From Corallococcus silvisoli (lineage in GTDB: Bacteria; Myxococcota; Myxococcia; Myxococcales; Myxococcaceae), in assembly GCF_009909145.1 (NCBI RefSeq), contig NZ_JAAAPJ010000005.1:336470-400469 (forward strand): a stretch of 64,000 nt of DNA, read 5' to 3'. Both the position numbers and the translations under genes were made by a program. Below, in pieces: positions 5,098 through 17,599 of the stretch. The notes below the pieces were generated by a model that did not search any database, had not been told where the DNA came from, and was given only the letters and a program-made list of their open reading frames with translations. How positions within the stretch are numbered: position 1 is the stretch's first letter; each line of letters starts with the position of its first letter.

Positions 5098-5318
5098 CGC
5101 CAATGCGAGAAGCGTCGGGTGCCCCCATCCGCGATAAAAGCCGGCGAGCCAGACTGTATTCTAGTCGATACTCGGCGGGAGCGCGTCCATGAGCAGCCCG
5201 TGTATGAGGCATGCTGCTGGCGGGTCGGTATTGCCCGTCCAGGTTGGTGTTTGGATTGGAAGTCGAGCGCCTGGATTTGAGGGGGAGCCGTTGCGCGCCA
5301 TCCGAGATCGGGTGCTAC

Positions 5319-6671
5319 ATGAAAACCTGGATTCGCTTCCTGGGGAGTCGCGCCACTCAACTCCGGCAGACGGTGCTGGGAGCCCTCCAAGGCTCGGGCC
5401 TCGAGATGGTGTCGCGCCCGGAGGAAGCTCCCCCTGGCCTCGGAGTGATTGTCTTCGATGAAGTGGAAGCGAACACGCTGGAAGCCGTGCGGGACTGCCG
5501 GCTGAGCCCTTCGACACGGGTCCTCGCGGTGGCCACGACGGGCCAGGGACTCGGTGAAGGGGCTTGCTGGCGGCTGCTTCAGGCGGGAGCCTCGGACGTG
5601 CTCGTCTGGGAGGGCGCGCGTGACGCGGCGGCGGAGATCGCCGCACGGCTGGAGCGCTGGCACCAGGTGGAGCGGCTCATCGAGTCGCCCGCCGTGCAAC
5701 GGCGCCTGGTGGGCCGGGCCGCCACCTGGCTCCCGGTGCTGCGCCAGCTCGTGGAGGTGGCCGCGTTCACTGACGCCTCGGTGCTGCTGCTCGGGGAGAG
5801 CGGCACCGGCAAGGAGGAGATGGCCTGTCTCATCCACGAGCTGGACATGCGCCCGGACAAGCGGGAGCTGGTGACGCTGGACTGTACGACGGTGGTGCCG
5901 GAGCTGTCGGGCAGCGAGTTCTTCGGGCATGAGCGGGGCGCCTTCACGGGAGCGACGAACACCCGAGACGGGGCCTTCGCCCTGGCCCATGGCGGGACGC
6001 TGTTCCTGGACGAGGTGGGCGAGCTGCCCCTGGCCCTCCAGGCTCAGTTGCTGCGGGTGGTGCAGGAGCGTCTGTACAAGCGCGTGGGCTCCAACACCTG
6101 GCAGCGGACGGACTTCCGGCTCGTCTGCGCCACCAACCGCGAGCTGTCCCAGCAGGTCGCCCAGGGCGGCTTCCGCCGCGACTTCTTCCACCGCATCCTG
6201 AGCTGGGTGTGCCGGCTCCCGCCCCTGCGCGAGCGACCCGAGGACATCCTCCCGCTGGCCCAGCACTTCCTCCGGTCGATGCGACCCGACATGGCGCTCG
6301 AGCTGGATCCCCACGTGCGGGAGTACCTCCTCAAGCGCAGCTACCCGGGAAACATCCGGGAGCTGCGTCAGCTCATCGGGCGCCTCTGCAAGCGGCACGT
6401 GGGCACCGGGCCCATCACCGTGGGCGACATTCCCCCCGACGAGCTCCCTTCCTCCGAAGGGCTCGGGGACTGGCAGGACGTCTCGTTCGCGCAGGCCATC
6501 CAGCGCGCCCTGTCGCTCGGGGTGGGGCTCAAGGAGATTGGCCGGAGCGCCTCGGACACGGCCATCCGGCTGGCCCTCGCCGAGGAGCAGGGCAACCTCC
6601 AACGCGCCGCCCGGCGGCTGGGCGTCACGGACCGCGCGCTCCAGCTCCGCCGGGCCCAGCGCGACGAATAG
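5319..6671 (+). CDS. Sigma-54-dependent transcriptional activator (NtrC family) with a degenerate receiver-like N-terminus
   Basis: AAA+ Walker A GESGTGKE, the sigma-54 contact motif GAFTGA, and a C-terminal Fis-type HTH (GNLQRAARRLGVTDRALQ). The N-terminal ~120 aa is receiver-like but lacks the acidic pair and the conserved Lys. Confidence 0.9.
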   Translation: MKTWIRFLGSRATQLRQTVLGALQGSGLEMVSRPEEAPPGLGVIVFDEVEANTLEAVRDCRLSPSTRVLAVATTGQGLGEGACWRLLQAGASDVLVWEGARDAAAEIAARLERWHQVERLIESPAVQRRLVGRAATWLPVLRQLVEVAAFTDASVLLLGESGTGKEEMACLIHELDMRPDKRELVTLDCTTVVPELSGSEFFGHERGAFTGATNTRDGAFALAHGGTLFLDEVGELPLALQAQLLRVVQERLYKRVGSNTWQRTDFRLVCATNRELSQQVAQGGFRRDFFHRILSWVCRLPPLRERPEDILPLAQHFLRSMRPDMALELDPHVREYLLKRSYPGNIRELRQLIGRLCKRHVGTGPITVGDIPPDELPSSEGLGDWQDVSFAQAIQRALSLGVGLKEIGRSASDTAIRLALAEEQGNLQRAARRLGVTDRALQLRRAQRDE

Positions 6672-7529: not shown

Positions 7530-8516
7530 TCATCGGCGCTCGAACAGCTCGTAGAGCGCCTTGTCGGGGAGCGAGAGCGCGCGGTTGGCGATGCCAGGCG
7601 CCTTGGCGGCCCGGACGCCCCATGGATTCGGCGGGAGCAAGCCCTGGATGGAGACACCTCCTCTCACGCGGAACTGCCGGATGGAGCTCAGGTTGCGAAG
7701 GCGGCCCGCGGGGACGGCTCCAGAGAGCAGGAGCGCGCGGATCAGCGCATGCTCCACCGCCCTGCGAGCCTGTCGGGTGTTGGGCTGAATCGTCCCGAAC
7801 CAGACCGTGATGGGCTTGGGCAGCAGCCCCCCCTTCTGGGTGAGCCCCATCTGGTAGAGGCTCAGCAGGCGTCCTCGCCAGCGCCCCTGGAAGCTGTCCG
7901 TCTCGCCCACGTAGAGGGGAAGCCCCTCCTCCTCCACGACGTACAAGCCACCTCCGGCGGGAAGCGCGGAGAACGGGTGGCGATCAATCTTCCGCACCGA
8001 CCAGGAGAGGACCTTCGCGGTGACGGGGCCCCGCTGTGCCTCGAGCTCCTGCGACTCCGCGGGAGGGGGCCCGTCCTGCCCGGGCGGAGCGTCCGAGGGT
8101 TCCTCGGGAGGCGCCACATCCGGCGGCGGCTGCGCCGCGGCCACCGGCTCGACGCTGTCGGGAGGGGGCTCGTTCAGGGCCGGCTGGTAGAGCGGGTAGC
8201 CGTACGGCCCTCCGCCGTAGACCACCCAGGGGCGGCCCCTCGGCCACCGCCGCCCCGGCCTCGGCCCCTGCCCCTGCCCCTGCCCCTGCCCGGGGCTCCG
8301 CCACGCACGGGCCGGTCTCGAACCCGAACGCCAGACCTGCGCCCGGGGGACGCCCATCATCCCGCGTCCGACCCCGAACCGCCTCGCGCCGGGCTGGAGT
8401 GCACGAGCGCGGCGCGCAGGTGGCGCACGGAAGGACCGCGCGAAGTGGCCCTCCTCTTCGCCTTCCCACTCGGACTCCAACGCGTCTTCGCTCTCGTTCT
8501 CGTACCACTCATTCAT
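7530..8516 (-). CDS. Hypothetical protein: acidic head, Arg-rich/GQ-repeat segment, Pro-rich linker, GIY-YIG-like C-terminal domain (operon gene E)
   Basis: N-terminus MNEWYENESEDALESEWEGEEEG, followed by about 18 Arg with no acidic residues. The C-terminal half contains GLYVVEEEGLPLYVGETDSFQGRWRGRL...AVEHALI, resembling GIY-x8-YxG-R...E. Start overlaps the gene D stop (ATGAATGA). Confidence 0.75.
   Translation of the reverse strand: MNEWYENESEDALESEWEGEEEGHFARSFRAPPARRARALQPGARRFGVGRGMMGVPRAQVWRSGSRPARAWRSPGQGQGQGQGPRPGRRWPRGRPWVVYGGGPYGYPLYQPALNEPPPDSVEPVAAAQPPPDVAPPEEPSDAPPGQDGPPPAESQELEAQRGPVTAKVLSWSVRKIDRHPFSALPAGGGLYVVEEEGLPLYVGETDSFQGRWRGRLLSLYQMGLTQKGGLLPKPITVWFGTIQPNTRQARRAVEHALIRALLLSGAVPAGRLRNLSSIRQFRVRGGVSIQGLLPPNPWGVRAAKAPGIANRALSLPDKALYELFERR
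8265..8291 (-). repeat. Hexanucleotide tandem repeat (cccctg x4.5) encoding (GQ)4
   Basis: Read directly from the sequence. In frame within gene E. Confidence 0.9.
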
Positions 8517-9594
8517 GACGTGTCCTCCGCTGCTGCCTTCCGTCGACGGCTTCCACCAGCGCCTCCACTGCGTGAGTCAGCTCCTCCGCGCCGTGCCGCG
8601 CGGTGAGGATGAAGCTCACCGACACCTCCGGACCGCAGCGCGAGCGCTGGAGCACGGTCCGGATGCCACGCCGGTGCAGCCGCTCGTGGACCGCTCGCGG
8701 GTTCACCCCGCGAGGAAGCTGGATCCGCTGCACCGGGAACCGCCCGCCCACCGAGGCCAACCCCGACCGCCGCAGCCGCCCCCGGAAGTGCGCCACCCGC
8801 AGCGCCAGCGCCTCCCGGAGCGCGTCGCCTTTCCGGCGATTGATGGCCACCGCGTGCTCGGCGGCATGGAGATCCGCCACCGAAGGTGGACTGCAATGCA
8901 TCCGCGTCTCGCTGCGCTCCTCGTACCTGGCCACCACCCGCGCGCCGCCGGCCATCAGCGCCATCGGCACACCCAAGGCCTTCGCCATCGAGCCGCACCA
9001 CAGGACATCTGGCCCGTGGATGCCGTACCAGCGCAGCGAACCCCCTCCGCCGGCTCCGTATGGCAGGCCGGGCCCCGGCATGCCGAACACTCCCAAGGCT
9101 TGGGTGTCGTCCAGGATGAGCAGGCCCCCATGGGCCCGGACCACCTCCAGGTACGCGTCGAGCGGCGCCAGCGCGCCGCAGCCCGGACACCAACCGTCGC
9201 AGACCACCACCGGCCGGAGCCCCTGGCGCGGCGCCCGTGCCAGGAGCCTCGCCAGGGCCTCGGGCGAATGATGGGGAAAGCTCCTCACGGGTCCGCCGCG
9301 CGCCACCACCCGCTCGAACCCCCACCGCACCACCGGGTAGCTGCCTTCATCCCAGTAGAGGGCCACGGGGCGCCCCGCGAGCGCTCCGAACACGTCCCAG
9401 AACAGGTGCAGCGTGGAGCGGGCGAACAGCCCCCGCTCGCAGCCCACCAGCTCCGCCAGGGCGCGTGACGTCTCTTGCGTTCCGGGGGGCTCCTCGAGGA
9501 TGGCCGGAGTGCCCAGGGTGAGCCGCTCCCACGGCGCGAGCGATCCGCTGGAGTGCTCCAGGCCCAGGTAGAGCGCGGAGGTGAAGTCGAGCAC
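8509..9594 (-). CDS. 8-amino-7-oxononanoate synthase-like PLP-dependent acyltransferase, divergent active site (operon gene D)
   Basis: N-terminal LDFTSALYLGLEHS (compare DFxSNDYLGL). DDTQALGVFG stands where the family has DDAHGxG. Lys is retained in GSMAKALG. GTG start with GGGGGA 9 nt upstream. Confidence 0.8.
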   Translation of the reverse strand: MLDFTSALYLGLEHSSGSLAPWERLTLGTPAILEEPPGTQETSRALAELVGCERGLFARSTLHLFWDVFGALAGRPVALYWDEGSYPVVRWGFERVVARGGPVRSFPHHSPEALARLLARAPRQGLRPVVVCDGWCPGCGALAPLDAYLEVVRAHGGLLILDDTQALGVFGMPGPGLPYGAGGGGSLRWYGIHGPDVLWCGSMAKALGVPMALMAGGARVVARYEERSETRMHCSPPSVADLHAAEHAVAINRRKGDALREALALRVAHFRGRLRRSGLASVGGRFPVQRIQLPRGVNPRAVHERLHRRGIRTVLQRSRCGPEVSVSFILTARHGAEELTHAVEALVEAVDGRQQRRTRHE

Positions 9595-9609
9595 CGGCGC
9601 CGTCCCCCG

Positions 9610-11466
9610 TCACCGCCTCCGCTGCAGGGCCAGCCGGTTGCGCAGGTGCACCGAGGGGGACACGTAGCGCTCCGCCAGGCGCTGCTGGTCGGTGATGTCG
9701 ACCGCGAGGTCCACGCCGGTGACGGCCCGGTACGCGTGGATGTAGCCCTGGATCTCCGGCCGCCAGTAGCGCGCCCAGTTGGCGGCCTGGTTCGGGTCGT
9801 TCGTGATGCTCCACGCGCCGTAGCGCACGGCCAGGAGCACCTGCTCGCCGTAGACGGCGAGGTCGTGGAAGTGCACCACGCTGACGTCCGTCCACCCCAG
9901 GAGCGACTTCATCGCATCCACCCGGTCCATCCACGGCTCCGGGTAGGGCACCATCACCCGCCCGCCGAGGAACTCGCGCATCTCCGGGCGCGACAGCAGC
10001 CACTGCTGCATCAGCATCTCCTGGCGCGCGGTGGAGGGCATGTCTCCGAACTGGTTATGGGCCCCCTGCGCCAGCAGGTAGTGCGTCTCCTTGAGCGAGT
10101 TGAGCACCGGGAAGCCGTCCGACACCACGGTGGTGTCATCGTCCTGCCGGAAGAACTGCACGCATTGGTGGAGCAGGTTGTGGAAGGACTCGAGGAACTT
10201 CGAGCGCCGATCCGCGGTGCGCATCCCGGACACGGCCTTGCCGTGCAGCGTGAAGCCATATTCGTGGTCGTACTCGTGGGCGCGGCGCACGACGCTCAGC
10301 CGGTGCTGCTCGTCCTGGAGGTAGCCCCACAACACGTTGTTGAGGGGCCGCAGCGGATCGATCTCCATGTTCGCCAGCGGATCCCGGTCCCCGGGCCCGC
10401 GCACGTTCTGGAAGCGATTGCTGATGTAGTTCATCGCCTGGACCAGCATTCCCTCCTCGTGCCAGTAGTTCCAGATGAGCTCCAGGAAGGTGGGGTAGCC
10501 CAGCTTCTGCTGGAGGATGCCGTAGCAAGCGGCGTAGTCGTCCTCCGGAATGTTCCGAGGCGCGATGACCGGCACGTCGGGGAGCTTGTTGCGGATGATC
10601 GCCAGGTAGGGGAGCGCGACATCGGCGCTTCCGTTCACATCCTCCAGGTAGTGCTTCCACACGACCTCGAAGTCGAAATCGCGAGGAAGCGTCTGGCCGA
10701 GGCGACCGCCCTCCACGCGCGCGTCCAGCTTGTCCAGCAGCTCCGTGAAGTCCACCAGCACGCCCGTGCGCTCCAGCATGAAGGCCTCGGTCAGGGCCTT
10801 CAGCTTCCGGTAGGCATCCACGCCAGGGAATGGCAGCCGGAGCTTGGGCTTGCGGATCGGGGTCGGCCTGCCCGGGCCCGGCAGGCCCGTGCCCGGGTCC
10901 GTCATGTGGTCGGGCGGGCAGAGGTGTGCGTCGATGAACCGGCTGTATTGATCGAAGGAGAGCCAATCGGTGGTCTTGCGGATGACCATCCAGAGGATGA
11001 CGTCGGTCGTCAGCGGATGAAGGGTGCGCTGCAGCGCCACGGGGAGGACAGGCATGCGTCCAGCCGCGCCGAAGGAGTTGAGCTCGTTGAGCGCTTCGCG
11101 CACCACCTCCCGGACGTTCCTGTCGCCCTCTCCCGGGAGGAGGGTCAGCGACTGTTCGGCTTCCCAGGTGAACGCGGGCCTGGTGGAGCCCGCCCCTTCG
11201 AACTCCTCGAGGATGACCTTGGCCTTGAGGACGCCCGCGCGCCTCGAGCTGGGAATCGTCCAGGTCGCGTGGCCATTGAGCTCCTGCCTGTCCGCGCTGG
11301 ACTTGGAGACCGGGGGTTCGACGCTGCCGGCCTCCACGGACCATCTGTAGACCCGATGCGTGAGCTTCGGGTTCACGTGGACGGGGGACGCCGACAGTTC
11401 GACGGTGGCACCCGAAGCGCTCGAGGTGACGGTGGTGGGTGAGAGAGTGAGTGTGACGCCAGCCAT
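9610..11466 (-). CDS. Large hypothetical protein, 618 aa, no recognisable domain (operon gene C)
   Basis: High GC3. ATG 11466 is preceded by GGAGGA (the track ORF starts at TTG 11481). N-terminal ~110 aa is beta-rich, followed by a long helical region (FLELIWNYWHEEGMLVQAMNYISNRF, HEYDHEYGF). Confidence 0.8.
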   Translation of the reverse strand: MAGVTLTLSPTTVTSSASGATVELSASPVHVNPKLTHRVYRWSVEAGSVEPPVSKSSADRQELNGHATWTIPSSRRAGVLKAKVILEEFEGAGSTRPAFTWEAEQSLTLLPGEGDRNVREVVREALNELNSFGAAGRMPVLPVALQRTLHPLTTDVILWMVIRKTTDWLSFDQYSRFIDAHLCPPDHMTDPGTGLPGPGRPTPIRKPKLRLPFPGVDAYRKLKALTEAFMLERTGVLVDFTELLDKLDARVEGGRLGQTLPRDFDFEVVWKHYLEDVNGSADVALPYLAIIRNKLPDVPVIAPRNIPEDDYAACYGILQQKLGYPTFLELIWNYWHEEGMLVQAMNYISNRFQNVRGPGDRDPLANMEIDPLRPLNNVLWGYLQDEQHRLSVVRRAHEYDHEYGFTLHGKAVSGMRTADRRSKFLESFHNLLHQCVQFFRQDDDTTVVSDGFPVLNSLKETHYLLAQGAHNQFGDMPSTARQEMLMQQWLLSRPEMREFLGGRVMVPYPEPWMDRVDAMKSLLGWTDVSVVHFHDLAVYGEQVLLAVRYGAWSITNDPNQAANWARYWRPEIQGYIHAYRAVTGVDLAVDITDQQRLAERYVSPSVHLRNRLALQRRR

Positions 11467-11483
11467 GATTCCATCCTCCAACG

Positions 11484-12827
11484 CTAGGTGACGACGTTCC
11501 GCGGCAACGCGGGAGCCCGGAGCACCGACGCCAGGGTCCGCGACTTCGAGAGTGACGCGCAGGTCTCGGACGCATCGAGCGTGCTGCGCAGGGCCCAGTA
11601 CTTGAGGAGCTCGGCCAGGGCCTTGCTCTCCTCCTCGGGAGTGATGGCCCCGTCGGCCCTGGCCTGCCCGATGACGGCGAACACCAGCGAGGGCGGCGAC
11701 TCACGAATGCGGGAGCGCCGGGCGCGCCACTCCCGGTACAGCTCGGAGAGCCGGTCTGGCTGACGCTCCCGCGTCTTCATGACCTCCACCAGCGTGCGTC
11801 CACGAAGGGACTCCGGCCGGTGCTCCACCAGGAGCCGCGCGATGCGCGGCAGGCTCGCCTCGAGCGCGCCGAGCACCCGGCGGTGCTGCTCGGACAGTCC
11901 GTCGATGGGGTAGAACGCCTTCCACAGTCGCGCCAGCCGCGCCCACTGCGGATGCGGATACAGCAGTCCGCCCAGCGCGCTGCTCAGCTTGACGCGGATC
12001 CACGGGATGGGATGGGGGTCGTCCATGTTCAGCCGGAACACGAACGGCCGCGGCAGGCTCACCACCCCCATCAGCCCCACCGTGGCGGTCACCCCCACGC
12101 GAGCCACCGACCAGAAATCCGCGACGACCTCCGAGATCCACCGCTCCCACAGGCCCCAGACCAGCGCGTCCTCGGGCCCTTCACGCGGCACGTCGCGCAG
12201 GGCCACGCGGAGCGAGGCCACCAGGTCCAGCAGCGCCGCCCCCTGGTGCCCCACCTCGTGGAAGAGGGAGGACGCGAGGCTGCTGCCGATCATCCGCTCG
12301 CGGGGGACGCGGATGATGGCCACCGGGTTCGCCCCGCCGCCGGGCAGACGCGTGCGCGCCCGGCGGATGGCCGCTCCGGGGCCGCGAGCCAGGTAGCAGA
12401 TGACGGGCGGCGCCTCGTAGTACCCCGGCAGCTCCAGCGCGTTCTTGGAGAGCACGTCCAGCCCCGCCAGCCAGACGCCGTTGTCCGCCTCGCTGCGCTG
12501 GCTCATGGCCTCGCTGAAGATGTCGAACTGCGACAGCACCACGTTGAAGCGCAGCCGCAGGAAGGTGAAGCGCCGCTGCGCCTCGGCGGGGGCCGCGTGT
12601 CGGCCCCAGGGGCCCTCCAACCACGCGAGGTACTGGTGGATCTGCGTCCGTAGCTCACGGCGCCCCTTGACCAGGTAGCTCTCCAACGCCGCCTGCGCTT
12701 CGACGGAGAGCGTGGCCGCTGGGACCATCGTCTCCGACATGGCGAAGGACTTGATGCGCTCGAGCCGGGTGAGCAGCGCGCGGGCCTCCTGTGACAGCAT
12801 CCAGGAGGCGAAGGAGCCGGAGGACAT
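11484..12827 (-). CDS. Hypothetical protein with a single HExxH zinc-metalloprotease motif (operon gene B)
   Basis: SLFHEVGHQGAALLDL is the only recognisable motif. Starts 6 nt after the gene A stop. Confidence 0.75.
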   Translation of the reverse strand: MSSGSFASWMLSQEARALLTRLERIKSFAMSETMVPAATLSVEAQAALESYLVKGRRELRTQIHQYLAWLEGPWGRHAAPAEAQRRFTFLRLRFNVVLSQFDIFSEAMSQRSEADNGVWLAGLDVLSKNALELPGYYEAPPVICYLARGPGAAIRRARTRLPGGGANPVAIIRVPRERMIGSSLASSLFHEVGHQGAALLDLVASLRVALRDVPREGPEDALVWGLWERWISEVVADFWSVARVGVTATVGLMGVVSLPRPFVFRLNMDDPHPIPWIRVKLSSALGGLLYPHPQWARLARLWKAFYPIDGLSEQHRRVLGALEASLPRIARLLVEHRPESLRGRTLVEVMKTRERQPDRLSELYREWRARRSRIRESPPSLVFAVIGQARADGAITPEEESKALAELLKYWALRSTLDASETCASLSKSRTLASVLRAPALPRNVVT

Positions 12828-12833
12828 GGTGGC

Positions 12834-13463
12834 TCAGACCCCGTAGAGGATGATCTTGTTGCCCTTGCGCACCCAGCGGCCACTGCGGCCACCGGTGCCC
12901 GCGGCGTGCGGCATCTGGGCGGCGAAGCCAGGGGCGAACTTCTGGATGGCCTGGTGGACGGCGGCGCCAGCCACCTGCTGGGGCGAAGCATTGTCGGGCG
13001 AGTTGAGGGCCGTCTTGGAGGCGTCCGAGGCGAGTCGGACAATCTGCCGGGCCACCTCGAACTCGCGGTCCTCCTGGCTCAGGCCCTCCAGTTCGAGCCC
13101 GAACGCCTGGCCCGCCATGGAGGCCAGCTTGCCACCGACGGCGCCGCCCACGCCGGGGACCACGAGGTTGCCGAGCGCGCTGCCCACCATCGGCAGGGCC
13201 TGCCTGGCCAGTCCCTTGAGCATGCCCCCGAGCTGCTTGCCCAGCGGAGACTTCACGACCTTGCCGACGGCGCTGCCCACCTTCTTGATGATGTTGCCGA
13301 GGAACTGATCCAGCTCCTGCTCGTTGCTGACCTCCAGCAGCTCCGAGGCGAGCTCGTTCAGCTCGTTCTCGTTGAAGACCTCGCCCCACTCCGACTCGGC
13401 GTTGAACTCGAACTCGAACGACTCCCCCTCCAGTTCCTGGTAGGTGCGATCCACGTCATGCAT
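12834..13463 (-). CDS. 209-aa protein with an acidic head and a cationic Gly/Lys-rich core (operon gene A)
   Basis: ATG 13463 preceded by GAGGAA. The track ORF 12834-13712 is trimmed because its upstream part is Arg/Pro/Ala-rich junk. Residues 1-54 carry 15 Glu, 3 Asp and 1 Arg. Residues 55-122 carry 7 Lys, 1 Arg, 16 Gly and no acidic residues. C-terminus is GRWVRKGNKIILYGV. Confidence 0.8.
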   Translation of the reverse strand: MHDVDRTYQELEGESFEFEFNAESEWGEVFNENELNELASELLEVSNEQELDQFLGNIIKKVGSAVGKVVKSPLGKQLGGMLKGLARQALPMVGSALGNLVVPGVGGAVGGKLASMAGQAFGLELEGLSQEDREFEVARQIVRLASDASKTALNSPDNASPQQVAGAAVHQAIQKFAPGFAAQMPHAAGTGGRSGRWVRKGNKIILYGV

Positions 13464-13520
13464 GGTCAGTTCCTCGTGTGATGGGGCCGGCTTCGTGGCC
13501 GCGGGTTCGGACCGGGCATA

Positions 13521-13536
13521 AGCAGCGGCTGTGCCA
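13521..13536 (-). promoter_or_regulatory. Sigma-54 (-24/-12) promoter candidate for the six-gene operon
   Basis: Minus strand reads TGGCACAGCCGCTGCT against the consensus TGGCACG-N4-TTGCW. GG and GC have correct spacing. The -12 element is about 58 nt upstream of ATG 13463. No other correctly placed TGGCAC/GC pair was found in the window. Confidence 0.6.
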
Positions 13537-13581
13537 ACCCCGCCGAGGGTCGCTCCTGCTCTGGGAGTCAGGGCGCGGGAG

Positions 13582-13639
13582 CGAAGCGCGCTTCGGCGGC
13601 GCCGGCCGAACGGGAGATTCGGCGAAGCAGGCTTCGGCG
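13582..13639. promoter_or_regulatory. Candidate upstream activator sites: perfect palindrome plus TTCGGCG repeats
   Basis: CGAAGCGCGCTTCG (13582-13595) is a perfect 14-bp palindrome. TTCGGCG occurs at 13592, 13618 and 13633, with an inverted GCCGAA at 13605. The sites lie about 45-105 bp upstream of the -24 element. Confidence 0.3.
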
Positions 13640-13766
13640 CCCCGTCATGGCCCCGTGGGCTCCGGGCGAGTCCCCCCCCTGGCGAGGGCATTCGTCCCCT
13701 CGCCGTCGCCATTCGCGGGGCCGTCGGCTAGCGTTCGGCCCTCTCCGCGGAACAAGAGGGGGGCCC

Positions 13767-16040
13767 ATGCGCGTCGTACCGTCCATCCTGGAATCCGTCA
13801 CCGTTCACGCCGAAGGCGCGCTGTGCACCCGCGCGCTCGTGCTCTCCCCCGAGGACGGGCACCTGCCCGAACAGGTCCGCGTCGACGGCCTGCCCCTGGC
13901 CCTGCGAACAGCGACCCTGCGCGCCCGCGTGGTGGAGGGCCCCACCGGGCTCCTCGTCCGCGACCTGCGGCCCACGTTCGACGTGCGGCTGCCCGCCGAA
14001 TCGGACCTGCCCGCGGAGCTGCACGCGGCCGAAGCGGCGGAGGCCGCGCTGTCGGACGTGCTGGGCCGGCTGGAGCGGGTGCGCGCGGAGCTGGAGACCC
14101 TTCAGGGACTGGCGCCCTCCTTCCCGCCCCAGCGCAAGGGCCAGCTCCCGCGCGAGGCGCCCCTCGCCGCGATGCTGGCGCTGACGGGCTTCGTGGACGC
14201 GGAGCTGACGGCGCTGCATGCCCAGCGGCTGGAGCTGGAGCGGCAGTACCGCGACGCCACCCAAGAGCTGGAGCTGCGCCGCCGCCGCGTCCAGGAGCTG
14301 TCCTCCGCGCGAAGCGTGGACCGGGCCCGGCTCTTCCGCGCGGCCCTCCTCACGCTGTCCGGCCCCATCGCCGCGAACGCGGAGGCGCGCCTGGTGTTGG
14401 AGTACGCCGTGGCGGGCGCGCGATGGGTGCCCACCTACGACCTGCGCCTGCCGCGCACGCTGGAGGAAGGCACGCTGCGCATGCGTGCCGCCGTCATCCA
14501 GCGGACCGGCGAGGACTGGAAGGGGGTCCGGCTGTCGGTCTCCACCGCGAGCCTGGAGCGGCGCGCGGTGGTGCCGGAGCTGAAGTCGCTGCGCATCGGC
14601 CGCAGCCAGCCGGCGCCCGTGCGCTCGGGATGGCGTGAGCCCGCGCCGGGCCTGGACGAGCTGTTCGCGGGCTACGACGCCATGACGGTGCCGCCCCCTC
14701 TCGCGATGCCCGAGCCTCTTCCGCCCCCTCCGATGGACGAGCTGGACGCGGATGAGGACTCGTTCGGGAGCGTGGTGGCCTTCGAGGAGTCCTTGAAGGA
14801 GAAGTCGCCGAAGGCGATGTCGTCCTCGTATGGGGGCGCGCCGGGCGCTCCGCCCATGGCGCCCCCTTCCGTCTCCCGGCCCGCGCCGCCGCCCATGCCG
14901 GCTCCCAAGGCCGCGGCCCCCGCGCTGGGCGGAGTCCGCCCGTCGGCGGCCCCGAGCCGGAACCTCAGCGACGGCGGAGACCTCAGCCGGAGTTTCCGGC
15001 GGGATGCCCCGGGCCGGGGCGGCGGCGGGATGAGCAAGAAGCGCGCGGCCGAGGAGGAGAGCCTCGATGATGCCCCGATGATGGACCTGTCATCGGACCT
15101 CTCGGACGGCGAGGGCGGCGGCGGGGAGTCGCGGCGCACGAGGGCCCTGGAGCCCGCGGACAGCCTGTTCGACTACGACTCGCTGACGCTGGCCCCTCCG
15201 GGCGCTCCAGCCGAGCGCGGCCGGCTGACGCCCCGGCCGGCGCTCATCACGCAGGCGAGGCTGTCCGTCACTTCCGTGAGTCTCCAGGTCGAAGTGGTGC
15301 GCCTGGAGGCCCAGGCCTTCGTCACCGCCGAGTCCGTGAACACCGTGCCGCCGCCCACGTGGGCGGTGGCGCCGCGCGACTCCGCCCGGCACTTCGACGC
15401 GCGCTTCGACGCGGAGGCGGTCGCGGACGTGCCCGCCGACGGCGCGTGGCACACGGTGCCCATGCTGACGGTGCCCCTGGAGTTCCGCGCCGAATACGTC
15501 TGCGTGCCTTCGGTGGAGCCGCGGGTCTTCCGCACGGTGCGCCTGGACAATCGGACACCGCACCCGCTGCTCGCGGGGCCCGTGGACGTGACGCTCGGGG
15601 ATGAGTTCCTGATGACCTCTCCGCTGCCCACGCTCGGGCCCGGCGAGACGCAGCGGCTGGGATTGGGCGTGGAGGAAGCGATCCAGGTGGCGCGCAACAC
15701 GCGCTTCGAGGAAGCGACGGGCGGCATGTTCGGCAACAACACCGTCCTCACGCACCACGTCTCCGTGGAGGTGACCAACCACCTCGCGCGTCCCGCGACG
15801 CTCGCCATCTCCGAGCGCATCGGCGCGGTGCCCGAGTCCCAGAAGGACCTCAAGGTCGAGGAGGCGGAGGTCATCCCGCCCTGGCAGAAGCCCACGCCCC
15901 TGCCCGGAGAGGTCGCGGTGGAGGGCGAGCGGGTCTGGCGCATGAGCATGCCCGCCGGAGAGAAGCGTTCGATGAAGGCGACATGGGTCGTGAAGCTGCC
16001 CGGCAACAAGATGCTGTACGGCGGGAACCGGAGGACATGA
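13767..16040 (+). CDS. DUF4139 (mucoidy inhibitor MuiA-like) family protein with a ~150-aa Pro/Ala/Gly-rich insertion
   Basis: Hallmark ARWVPTYDLRLP...AAVIQRTGEDWKGVRLSVSTAS. ATG 13767 preceded by AAGAGGGGGG. Low-complexity insertion at about 14640-15190. Confidence 0.8.
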   Translation: MRVVPSILESVTVHAEGALCTRALVLSPEDGHLPEQVRVDGLPLALRTATLRARVVEGPTGLLVRDLRPTFDVRLPAESDLPAELHAAEAAEAALSDVLGRLERVRAELETLQGLAPSFPPQRKGQLPREAPLAAMLALTGFVDAELTALHAQRLELERQYRDATQELELRRRRVQELSSARSVDRARLFRAALLTLSGPIAANAEARLVLEYAVAGARWVPTYDLRLPRTLEEGTLRMRAAVIQRTGEDWKGVRLSVSTASLERRAVVPELKSLRIGRSQPAPVRSGWREPAPGLDELFAGYDAMTVPPPLAMPEPLPPPPMDELDADEDSFGSVVAFEESLKEKSPKAMSSSYGGAPGAPPMAPPSVSRPAPPPMPAPKAAAPALGGVRPSAAPSRNLSDGGDLSRSFRRDAPGRGGGGMSKKRAAEEESLDDAPMMDLSSDLSDGEGGGGESRRTRALEPADSLFDYDSLTLAPPGAPAERGRLTPRPALITQARLSVTSVSLQVEVVRLEAQAFVTAESVNTVPPPTWAVAPRDSARHFDARFDAEAVADVPADGAWHTVPMLTVPLEFRAEYVCVPSVEPRVFRTVRLDNRTPHPLLAGPVDVTLGDEFLMTSPLPTLGPGETQRLGLGVEEAIQVARNTRFEEATGGMFGNNTVLTHHVSVEVTNHLARPATLAISERIGAVPESQKDLKVEEAEVIPPWQKPTPLPGEVAVEGERVWRMSMPAGEKRSMKATWVVKLPGNKMLYGGNRRT

Positions 16041-17599
16041 TGCGCACTTCCATTCTGTTGCCCCTGGTCAAGGTGACGGTCCTGGAGGACCGGGCCCTCA
16101 TCGAGCGCACCGGCGAGGTGACGCTGCCTCCGGGCCCGTGCCGCCTCGCGGTGGACGGCCTGCCGGCGGTGGCCGTGGACCGCTCGCTTCAAGCGAAGCT
16201 CTCAGGTGGCGTGGTGACCCAGGCCAGCCTGCGCCGCTCGATGCGCGCGGTGCTCCCGGAGGCCCTGCGCGAACACGCCACGGAGCTGGCCCGCCGCGCC
16301 TTCGAGCGCGAGCAGGAGCTGGAGCGCGCGCAGGCGGAGGTCGGTCGCCTGGAGACGCGGCGCGACCTGCTGGAGGCCGCGCGGACCGAGGTCTTCCGCG
16401 CCATCAGCGAGCGCACCGGCGCGGGCGAGGCGGATCCGACGCGCTGGAAGGAACAGCTCGAAACGCTGCGCAAGGAGCAGGCCGCGACGGACGACACGCT
16501 CTGGCAGGCCCGGCGCTCCGCGGCGCGCCTCCAACGCCAGCATGAGCAGGAGACCCGCGAGGTGCTGGCGCGCACGGCTCCCGCCGAGCCCACGGTGGAC
16601 GTGCGCGCGGAGCTGGACGTGAGCCACGCGACGGGCGGGCCGGTGACGTTGACGCTGACGTACCTGGTGCCCTGCGCCGCATGGCGGCCCGCGTATCGCG
16701 CGGCCCTGAGCCTCGCGGACGAGGGCTCGACGGTGGCGTTGGAGTGCGAGGCCGTCGTCTGGCAGAACACGGGCGAGGCCTGGAAGGACGTGACGCTGGC
16801 CTTCTCCACGGCGCGCCCCACGCTGGGTGCCACGCCCCCCAGGCTCGAGGAGGACTGGCTGTCCCTGCGGGACAAGACAGCGCGAGAGAAGCAGGTGGTG
16901 GAGGTCTCCGTCCGCGAGGAGTCCATCCAGACGACCGGCGAGGCCGGGACCTCGAAGGCCGCGGATGCGCTGCCCGGCATGGACGACGGCGGAGCGCCGG
17001 TGACGCTGTCCACGCCCCACAAGGTCACGGTGCCGTCGGACGGCGAGGCGCACCGCGTGGCGCTGTTCGCGTTCACGGCGCCCGCGACGTCGGAGCTGGT
17101 GGCCTGCCCGGAGCAGTCGCCGCTGGTGCACCGGGTGGCGCGGTTCGCCAACACGGGGCCGACGGTGCTGATGGCCGGGCCGGTGGACCTGGTGCGCTCG
17201 AAGGGCTACGTGGGCCGCGCGCAGCTCAAGTTCGCGGGCCGGGGCGAGCGCGTGAAGCTGGGCTTCGGCAGCGAGGACTCGCTGCGCGTGTCACGGCAGG
17301 CGGAGTCGAGCGAGGAGGTCGCGCGCATCACCAGCCGGCGCACGAACACGGAGCGGGTGAAGCTGTTCGTCTCCAACATGGGGGCGATGCCGGCGAACCT
17401 GGTGGTGGAGGAGCGCATGCCGGTGTCCGAGGTGGAGGCCGTGGAGGTGGCGCTGCTCAAGGACGCCACGAAGCCCGCGCCCACGAAGGTGAGCGACGAC
17501 GGCATCGTGCGCTTCGAGTTGAACGTCCCGCCGCGCTCCCGGCAGACGGTGTCCTTCGGCTTCACGGTGGCCCGCTCCGGGAAGGTCTCGGGCCTGTAG
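16037..17599 (+). CDS. DUF4139 (MuiA-like) family protein, paralog of the upstream gene
   Basis: AAWRPAYRAALSL...AVVWQNTGEAWKDVTLAFSTARP. Its ATG overlaps the upstream TGA (ATGA). Confidence 0.8.
   Translation: MMRTSILLPLVKVTVLEDRALIERTGEVTLPPGPCRLAVDGLPAVAVDRSLQAKLSGGVVTQASLRRSMRAVLPEALREHATELARRAFEREQELERAQAEVGRLETRRDLLEAARTEVFRAISERTGAGEADPTRWKEQLETLRKEQAATDDTLWQARRSAARLQRQHEQETREVLARTAPAEPTVDVRAELDVSHATGGPVTLTLTYLVPCAAWRPAYRAALSLADEGSTVALECEAVVWQNTGEAWKDVTLAFSTARPTLGATPPRLEEDWLSLRDKTAREKQVVEVSVREESIQTTGEAGTSKAADALPGMDDGGAPVTLSTPHKVTVPSDGEAHRVALFAFTAPATSELVACPEQSPLVHRVARFANTGPTVLMAGPVDLVRSKGYVGRAQLKFAGRGERVKLGFGSEDSLRVSRQAESSEEVARITSRRTNTERVKLFVSNMGAMPANLVVEERMPVSEVEAVEVALLKDATKPAPTKVSDDGIVRFELNVPPRSRQTVSFGFTVARSGKVSGL

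Follow-up and report, generated by a model that had tools for sequence, protein, structure and literature searches.

What might a large protein without any nameable motif contribute to the operon whose centre it occupies? The question is raised by a gene of Corallococcus silvisoli lying within a 64,000-nucleotide stretch of contig NZ_JAAAPJ010000005.1 (hereafter the window). The 618-residue product is encoded between a protein with an HExxH motif and an enzyme of the pyridoxal 5'-phosphate (PLP) type; a preliminary description of the locus had presented it as an orphan and as a scaffold or an enzyme of a new family. The analysis reported here identifies the protein as the conserved core subunit of a self-contained gene cassette. 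Its N-terminal part, a predicted beta-sandwich, evolves fast and is dispensable; the remaining 480 residues form an all-helical domain that stands outside every described family and has no solved structural relative. The cassette is widespread and apparently undescribed, and the family is new.

The designation as an orphan did not survive database searches. A word-indexed search returned at least 3,809 homologues at E≤1e-3, the best 120 of which all scored above 599 bits; at the same threshold, an exhaustive profile search of 1.84 billion representatives yielded 1,346 clusters at 50% identity, 686 of them reaching E≤1e-30. Relatives are encoded by 431 stretches among GTDB contigs (one genome per species), distributed over roughly ten phyla that include Myxococcota, Acidobacteriota, Chloroflexota, Planctomycetota, Nitrospirota, Verrucomicrobiota, Methylomirabilota and Deinococcota. 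Many are found in Burkholderiales (Massilia, Janthinobacterium, Rugamonas, Variovorax, Caballeronia, Polaromonas, Thauera). The plasmid collection yielded only four copies (megaplasmids or chromids of Ensifer, Rhizobium and Paraburkholderia), and 50,697 phage records yielded no copy. The source annotations of the homologues are all "hypothetical protein" or propagated errors. Two homologues, from Aggregicoccus (P0012) and Pendulispora (P0054), are called "8-amino-7-oxononanoate synthase" in NCBI or UniRef; they lack a PLP domain, and the neighbouring gene is the probable source of the name. The fusion to a PLP enzyme that these names suggest was discarded: P0012 aligns end to end with the family and has no Pfam domain, its extra length being a low-complexity insert.

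Around distant homologues, the gene order is syntenic with that of the window. The cassette proteins of the window were compared by tblastn with 80 genome loci and with 80 metagenome loci, the latter fetched via the HExxH protein. The order that emerges starts with a sigma-54 promoter and one to three genes for a small pro-protein, followed by the HExxH protein, the 618-residue protein and, usually, a BioF-like PLP enzyme. The number of variable effectors that come next ranges from zero to four; an M20 peptidase is sometimes added, an Amidohydro_2 protein is usual, and the gene for a sigma-54 activator follows in convergent orientation. The succession of small protein, HExxH protein and 618-residue protein is kept at essentially all of the 80 genome loci with enough flank. 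In the metagenome set, the small-protein gene lies directly upstream of the HExxH gene at 61 of 61 loci, and the gene under study directly downstream of it in 51 of 54, the three exceptions having less than 930 nt of flank. The PLP gene is next in 27 of the 30 metagenome loci with enough flank, and Amidohydro_2 and the convergent activator close most cassettes.

Minimal versions of the cassette define its obligate part. The PLP gene is missing from several otherwise complete cassettes (L005, L007, L008, L009, L025, L048 and L062). The cassette of Archangium lacks it, and two cassettes (L025 and L027) have no effector. In Sorangium, the cassette is reduced to the small protein, the HExxH protein, the 618-residue protein, an Exo_endo_phos protein and the activator, lacking both PLP and amidohydrolase genes. 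Since these minimal cassettes keep them, the small protein, the HExxH protein and the 618-residue protein (with the activator) form the obligate unit. The proposal of a new family stood, no characterised match having been found; the link to the PLP enzyme that the same proposal implied is weak, because the PLP gene is dispensable in several cassettes, whereas the small and HExxH proteins are always present. A rearranged version was seen in a metagenome-assembled genome (MAG) of Polyangiaceae (L083, positions 8001-11400), in which two tandem paralogues of the 618-residue protein (53% and 49% identity) stand in the order small protein, paralogue, paralogue, HExxH, PLP.

Conservation along the protein was examined in an alignment of 30 members, with identities calculated per segment in 29 comparisons. 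Compared with a congener, the N-terminal module shows 55% identity where the core reaches 92%; in the other comparisons it shows 11-38%. Certain lineages have PKD or CarboxypepD_reg modules in its place, the only domains matched when 68 diverse homologues were scanned, and in two members (P0113 and P0120) it is nearly absent. The module of the protein itself has no Pfam match and is predicted to be a beta-sandwich by AlphaFold2. The first helical sub-domain, A, is 32-39% identical across phyla and contains a variable Pro/Gly-rich loop at about residues 185-215. The second, B, is of a different order: its 294 positions are gapless in 28 of 29 comparisons, the remaining sequence being 7 residues short. 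About 100 positions are invariant in the 30 sequences, which span several phyla; many are Asp, Glu, His, Arg, Asn, Gln, Trp or Tyr. They include E329, W335, E337, Q343, R351-F-Q-N354, D370, R373, R394, R395, E398, Y399, H401, Y403, G404, E426, D443, D444, D450, N456, H462, G468-A-H-N471, R481 and E483, in addition to many Arg and Trp residues. Invariant polar residues of sub-domain B include E398-x-x-H401, E426-x-x-H429, D442-D444, H462 and G468-A-H-N471. The three aromatic/His patches that had been singled out from the sequence turned out to be among the most conserved stretches of the family, F438 being a further invariant residue in them.

The N-terminal module was modelled in a full-length AlphaFold2 run with 30 close homologues, in which the helical part stayed below 50 in predicted local distance difference test score (pLDDT). 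This part was superseded by a model of residues 136-618 built with 149 sequences from the 50%-identity representatives (mean pLDDT 92.5; predicted template modelling score, pTM, 0.92). The helical domain appears as a compact arrangement of 23 helices whose sole weak stretch is the Pro/Gly-rich loop. The preliminary description had anticipated both halves, an immunoglobulin (Ig)-like N-terminal segment of about 110 residues and a helical remainder. It had also placed the protein correctly as the largest of the operon, and its exclusion of membrane anchoring agrees with a maximum Kyte-Doolittle mean over 19 residues of 1.03 and with an N-terminus (MAGVTLTLSPTTVTSSASG...) that, by inspection, does not resemble a signal peptide.

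Attempts to connect the protein to something known were negative throughout. No family was matched in Pfam-A (scanned to E=10), NCBIfam, PADLOC or PHROGs, and no PDB chain is similar by sequence or fold. With the 483-residue helical model as query, all structural neighbours among solved and viral-predicted structures were at noise level. Neither sequence nor structure searches produced a confident match to a characterised family. Several local resemblances were considered and dismissed. A zincin site at H397-E-Y-D-H401 is incompatible with the variation at position 397 (H, S, N, Y, V and others), only E398 and H401 being invariant. The sequence QDDDTTVV recalls the DxDDTA motif of class II terpene cyclases, and GAHNQFG and VHFHD recall the proximal and distal motifs of haem peroxidases; both look-alikes were rejected on conservation, motif order or fold, and the protein fails the tests for a terpene cyclase (class I DDxxD, class II DxDDTA, alpha-helical cyclase fold). 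The fold search and hydropathy spoke against an alpha-pore-former of the ClyA, AhlB or MakB type, and homology to the HExxH partner was given a probability of 0.1% by hhalign. The two ExxH motifs with additional carboxylates were noticed by eye as a possible counterpart of those in di-iron enzymes (ferritin-like or haem-oxygenase-like).

The gene itself is beyond doubt. It is an intact reading frame of 618 codons on the minus strand, an orientation that the preliminary description had not given, and its product is 100% identical to a C. silvisoli entry annotated as "hypothetical protein" (Table 1). The G+C content of the window is about 70%, on account of which it holds many long spurious open reading frames (ORFs); the plus-strand frame over the same interval was rejected as a gene, and the G+C content at third codon positions (GC3) of the minus-strand frame is typical of genuine genes in such a genome. 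Gaps to the same-strand neighbours on either side, the HExxH and PLP genes, measure 15-17 nt. In 2-kb bins, G+C is 0.67 at positions 10001-12000 (the gene under study and the HExxH gene) as compared to 0.70-0.74 in the flanking bins, a dip that is compatible with horizontal acquisition and weak when taken alone.

Table 1. Cassette features in the window, in operon order (positions counted from the first nucleotide of the window; aa, amino acids)
Feature	Positions	Strand	Remarks
Sigma-54-type -24/-12 element	13522..13536	-	TGGCACAGCCGCTGC / TTGGCACAGCCGCTGCTT; about 60 nt upstream of the small-protein ATG
Small pro-protein, 209 aa	12834..13463	-	Anionic leader ending ELDQFLG, cationic glycine-zipper segment, conserved C-terminus GRWVRKGNKIILYGV
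Unclassified HExxH protein, 447 aa	11484..12827	-	HEVGH at residues 190-194; E233-x-x-x-D237
Coding sequence of the protein under study, 618 aa + stop (WP_161664628.1)	9610..11466	-	ATG at 11466, GGAGGA upstream, GC3 0.88, NCBI boundaries match
Fast-evolving N-terminal beta-sandwich (Ig-like), residues 1-112	11131..11466	-	Nine predicted strands, pLDDT 80-92
Helical sub-domain A, residues 141-324	10495..11046	-	Helices pLDDT >85 except model residues ~50-80
Helical sub-domain B, residues 325-618	9613..10494	-	67-74% identity across phyla; pLDDT 95-98
Divergent alpha-oxoamine-synthase-like PLP enzyme, 361 aa	8509..9594	-	BioF, KBL, SPT, ALAS relatives, below family cut-offs
Variable-slot effector, 328 aa	7530..8516	-	Acidic N-terminal tag, Arg/Pro/Gly-rich linker, GIY-YIG-like C-terminal module
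Amidohydro_2 protein, 278 aa	6686..7522	-	~70% identical across phyla
Sigma-54 enhancer-binding protein, AAA+ with GAFTGA, HTH_8	5211..6671	+	Sigma54_activat 2.2e-53; start codon uncertain

The two obligate partners share the isolation of the 618-residue protein, none of the three families having Pfam, NCBIfam or PDB relatives. In the HExxH protein, H190, E191, H194, E233 and D237 are shared by all of 38 sequences; the HEVGH region is near-invariant also in a separate alignment of 78 sequences, as are the segments RRARTRLPGGG and DDPHP in the family. An HExxH motif followed by ExxxD is the signature of gluzincins, as in thermolysin. Judging from these residues, the protein is probably an active metallopeptidase.

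The small protein starts at MHDVDRT (ATG at 13463), as indicated by its homologues and by the 209-residue NCBI call. The mechanical 292-residue ORF at 12834-13712 on the minus strand over-extends the gene by 83 Arg/Pro/Ala-rich codons, and the sigma-54 promoter falls inside this spurious extension. Copies of the gene, one to three in tandem, form the head of the operon. The leader carries a net charge of about -17 and ends in a near-invariant D-x-F-L-G (F54 and G56 near-invariant in 81 sequences). The next 75 residues have a charge of +4.8 and 22% Gly, with 8.6 glycine-zipper motifs after the leader as opposed to 3.1 in shuffled sequences; no clear transmembrane helix is present (maximum Kyte-Doolittle value 1.36). 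The C-terminus is conserved as G-R-W-x-R-x-G-x-x-I-x-L-x-G. A second class of paralogues, with an N-terminal zinc-ribbon-like C-x-C-x2-C-R-Q motif, occurs between effector and Amidohydro_2 genes at ten loci (L023, L034, L038, L044, L054, L057, L058, L068, L078, L081), mostly of Burkholderiales; L078 is a Nitrospira MAG.

The promoter element of the window conforms to TGGCAC-N5-CTGC, and an equivalent -24/-12 element was found in the 450 nt preceding the first small-protein gene at 35 of 72 loci, as against an expectation of 0.029 per region, or about 2 among 72 loci. The activator gene is convergent with the operon end and occupies the same position in nearly all cassettes. Its N-terminal portion of about 170 residues, which has no Pfam match, looks by eye like a degenerate receiver domain. 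From the combination of promoter and cognate enhancer-binding protein, the cassette is predicted to be a member of the sigma-54 regulon. The C. silvisoli secretome paper proved uninformative on the cassette proteins, both because its supplements carry mostly RAST peg identifiers and because the operon is probably silent without its activator. Directly upstream of the promoter, two large ORFs lie on the opposite strand: one at 13647-16040 (+) encodes 797 residues with DUF4140 and DUF4139, and the other, at 15983-17599 (+), encodes 538 residues and overlaps the 3' end of the first with its 5' end by about 58 nt.

The content of the effector slot was assessed from 98 candidate ORFs located between the PLP gene (or the gene under study) and the amidohydrolase gene in 52 cassettes. 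Eighty-eight of them were scanned against Pfam together with the 328-residue protein of the window, and these 89 ORFs matched 22 families: PG_binding_1 (22), OmpA (10), Amidase_2, trypsin-like and M20 peptidases (7 each), GIY-YIG (4), VanY (3), DUF2272 and Rv2525c-like (2 each), and muramidase, M23, M74, NlpC/P60, CHAP and HNH (1 each), among others. By a stricter regular expression, GIY-YIG-like modules occur in at least 15 of the 52 cassettes, that of the window included. Most slot proteins begin with an acidic, aromatic-rich segment (M..F.FEAEPFE, for example, or M.EWYE.E.E in myxobacteria), continue with an Arg/Pro/Gly-rich linker and end in the enzyme domain. Judged by inspection, such a layout excludes a Sec or Tat signal.

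The effector of the window conforms to this plan. Its N-terminus (MNEWYENESEDALESEWEGEEEG) is followed by a (GQ)n/Arg-Pro-rich linker with RRWPRGRPWVVY, and GGLYVV...LYVGET... falls in the C-terminal module, which matches GIY-YIG in Pfam weakly (E=0.22) and can be aligned to its GIY-YIG-like counterparts in 14 other cassettes. The start differs from the NCBI call and is uncertain, the exact sequence being absent from the collection. Arg/Pro-rich linkers also occur in slot proteins of L001, L030, L034, L068, L085 and other loci (e.g., RPRPRPRPRPRPRPGPIGWPVGWP, RRKWPWFLY). We take these linkers to resemble the Pro/Arg-rich or Arg/Trp-rich cell-penetrating antimicrobial peptides Bac7, PR-39 and indolicidin; if the resemblance is real, the linker could serve as a translocation module. 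Slot content varies between close relatives, and such variation on a constant core is the hallmark of a polymorphic effector system.

How might the 618-residue protein function in this setting? We tentatively put first, as a possible reading, that it assists the HExxH peptidase, as an obligate partner, when the small pro-protein is matured or controlled, because tandem pro-protein genes are combined with a peptidase and a large accessory protein, and because of the charge layout of leader and core. The protein and the gluzincin-like peptidase would act jointly on the small pro-protein, the only universal client in the cassette. Sub-domain B could form a catalytic centre, possibly metal-dependent (E398xxH401, E426xxH429, H462, H470 and D442-D444), or else a platform on which the leader is held to be cleaved or modified, and the variable beta-sandwich would serve as an adaptor. 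After the sigma-54 promoter has been fired by the activator, the matured glycine-zipper protein would permeabilise a membrane, and the co-expressed signal-less peptidoglycan hydrolases, proteases and nucleases would then reach their substrates, the purpose being either bacteriocin-like attack or self-lysis. For the cassette as a whole, it seems quite possible, if short of probable, that it represents a hitherto unrecognised, phylum-spanning protein weapon or programmed-lysis system. A sigma-54-switched glycine-zipper pro-protein would be matured by a two-protein machine, made of the HExxH peptidase and the new-fold protein (maybe a metalloenzyme with an undescribed protein modification), and would release or deliver interchangeable signal-less hydrolases and nucleases without a known secretion apparatus.

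Several observations weigh against a role in maturation. At about 200 residues, with conserved helices and C-terminus, the small protein may not be a precursor but a folded partner with a structural role. A very high degree of conservation is unusual for components of conflict systems, and modules of the PKD, Ig and CarboxypepD_reg kinds are met more typically in proteins outside the cell or on particle surfaces than in maturases of the cytosol. The 618-residue protein displays no catalytic motif of a known enzyme class and no recognised cofactor-binding signature, and the cassette includes no exporter. Finally, a crude test for lineage-specific co-variation between the leaders of the small proteins and the tags of the effectors gave a 4/4/6/8 table, with no signal. 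The very high conservation of sub-domain B, the most striking fact of all, is accounted for by none of the readings considered here.

It is unlikely, but conceivable, that the protein acts instead as a regulatory, sensor or safety subunit whose helical domain suppresses the activity of the peptidase or of the small protein inside the producer. The beta-sandwich would detect a trigger (a phage or competitor component, or envelope damage), and the cassette would be a two-key programmed-lysis or abortive-infection module, the keys being sigma-54 transcription and post-translational release. The divergence of the N-terminal module relative to the core in the congener, together with its changing type (Ig-like, PKD, CarboxypepD_reg or absent), is what one would expect if the module served recognition. 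Signal-less peptidoglycan hydrolases and nucleases would kill the producer once released, and no immunity genes were noticed by eye beside the effectors, no systematic search having been made. Sigma-54 promoters, present in the window and at related loci, give a tight off-state. However, since P0113 and P0120 have essentially no N-terminal module, sensing through it cannot be essential. Furthermore, PADLOC gave no match for any component of the cassette, the flanks examined gave no sign of enrichment in defence islands, and an inhibitor or sensor rarely needs some 100 invariant polar and aromatic positions.

A structural or delivery function appears more doubtful still. The helical domain would self-assemble or bind the acidic tags of the effectors as a carrier, shell or B-component, with the beta-sandwich facing outward to bind target-cell surfaces, and the complex, released by lysis, would deliver the polymorphic effectors. 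The only modules found fused to the core are beta-sandwiches of the kind typical of extracellular or particle-surface proteins. Most slot proteins share the acidic aromatic tag and the flexible Arg/Pro-rich linker, and a layout of tag, linker and enzyme recalls cargo-targeting peptides. The very high, indel-free conservation would also suit an assembly with many interfaces.

The accessory enzymes offer the remaining alternative. The best PDB relatives of the PLP enzyme are BioF (1e-11), then KBL, SPT and ALAS. S202/K205 and a DDTQ motif are invariant, the Schiff-base lysine among them; BioF has DDAH in place of DDTQ. An M20/M25/M40 peptidase of about 480 residues ("...FIRFPSVSAQP...") recurs directly before Amidohydro_2 in seven cassettes (L011, L013, L043, L059, L062, L067, L078) from Acidobacteriota, Nitrospira and other lineages, and is absent from the window. 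It is very improbable that the 618-residue protein is a small-molecule enzyme that, with the PLP enzyme, Amidohydro_2 and the occasional M20 peptidase, makes or modifies a metabolite (an activator signal, an antibiotic or a producer-protecting modification of cell-wall precursors, for example). In favour of this reading, its gene is directly upstream of and tightly coupled to the PLP gene, the Schiff-base lysine and DDTQ of the PLP enzyme are invariant, Amidohydro_2 is about 70% identical across phyla, M20 accounts for 7 of the 89 slot ORFs and the protein has many invariant acid, base and His residues. Against it, the PLP and amidohydrolase genes are dispensable, PLP being absent from the cassettes listed above and from 3 of the 30 metagenome loci with enough flank and both from Sorangium, while the protein is always kept with the HExxH and small proteins.

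Between Myxococcota, Acidobacteriota, Burkholderiales, Chloroflexota, Planctomycetota and Nitrospirota, a module of 294 residues stays about 70% identical and free of indels, a level of conservation comparable to that of core housekeeping machinery; yet the module is nameless and has neither family nor structural relative. If the maturation scheme is true, it would provide diderm bacteria with a new route to deploy cell-wall-degrading enzymes without signal peptides; a new enzyme class or protein fold would likewise be defined, and the cassettes would become a new source from which lytic enzymes and membrane-active proteins can be drawn. As the cassette is compact and has a clear grammar, the scheme lends itself to direct testing in tractable hosts (Myxococcus, Corallococcus, Massilia, Janthinobacterium, Variovorax and Ensifer, for example). 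Should the mechanism prove wrong, three large families (roughly 1,300 clusters or more each, as an order of magnitude) would still leave the "hypothetical" category for a defined system. No description of the cassette was found in full-text literature searches, subscription literature being outside their reach, and the one paper that seemed a candidate (Kaur et al. 2020) does not deal with it.

Three types of known systems invite comparison. The first comprises operons for leader-peptide bacteriocins, microcins and ribosomally synthesised and post-translationally modified peptides (RiPPs), such as the class II bacteriocins with double-glycine leaders. The cassette has in common with them a head of one to three precursor-like genes in tandem, the genes for a peptidase and a large accessory protein behind it, and an anionic leader with a conserved helix and a near-invariant small-residue end. 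The bacteriocin leader consensus is LSxxELxxIxGG, and the ELDxFLG of the cassette resembles it. In the cassette, a cationic, Gly-rich, membrane-active-looking core follows. Tandem precursor-like genes with a conserved leader, as used to recognise RiPP or bacteriocin maturation, are present. Unlike these systems, the cassette has a "precursor" of about 200 residues with conserved downstream helices and C-terminus; Pfam and NCBIfam revealed no C39/ABC or other dedicated exporter domain, RiPP recognition element or recognised modification enzyme, and neither the peptidase nor the large protein can be assigned to a described family.

The second type is represented by polymorphic toxin and colicin-type bacteriocin loci, whose comparative genomics was reportedly treated by Zhang, Aravind and colleagues in 2012. 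Here the similarity lies in a constant N-terminal part combined with C-terminal toxin domains that are interchanged between close relatives, in the nature of these domains (peptidoglycan amidases, peptidases, muramidase, GIY-YIG, HNH and EEP nucleases) and in the disordered linker that precedes them. By contrast, no known trafficking apparatus (type V, VI or VII secretion, Rhs or the like), lysis lipoprotein or adjacent immunity gene was recognised in the cassette (immunity genes without a systematic search), and no secretion-system genes were found in or beside the cassettes examined. The constant machinery consists of three unclassified proteins and metabolic-type enzymes, and control is of the sigma-54 rather than the SOS type.

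The third type comprises phage holin-endolysin lysis cassettes and defence modules with a protease-activated pore-former, such as bacterial gasdermin with its protease. What the cassette shares with them is the co-expression of peptidoglycan hydrolases that lack signals with a small membrane-active protein, here of the glycine-zipper kind, and a dedicated peptidase encoded beside a pro-protein with an inhibitory extension. The former differ in their phage context, of which the phage records and PHROGs (no match for the core proteins) gave no trace here, and in possessing a clear transmembrane holin; the latter in a gasdermin-like fold, for which the cassette has neither counterpart nor PADLOC match. 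Neither has an equivalent of the 480-residue helical protein. Set apart from each class by the features that mark its members, the cassette appears, by analogy, to work most like a leader-dependent bacteriocin maturation system that has been combined with a polymorphic-toxin slot and the logic of holin and endolysin.

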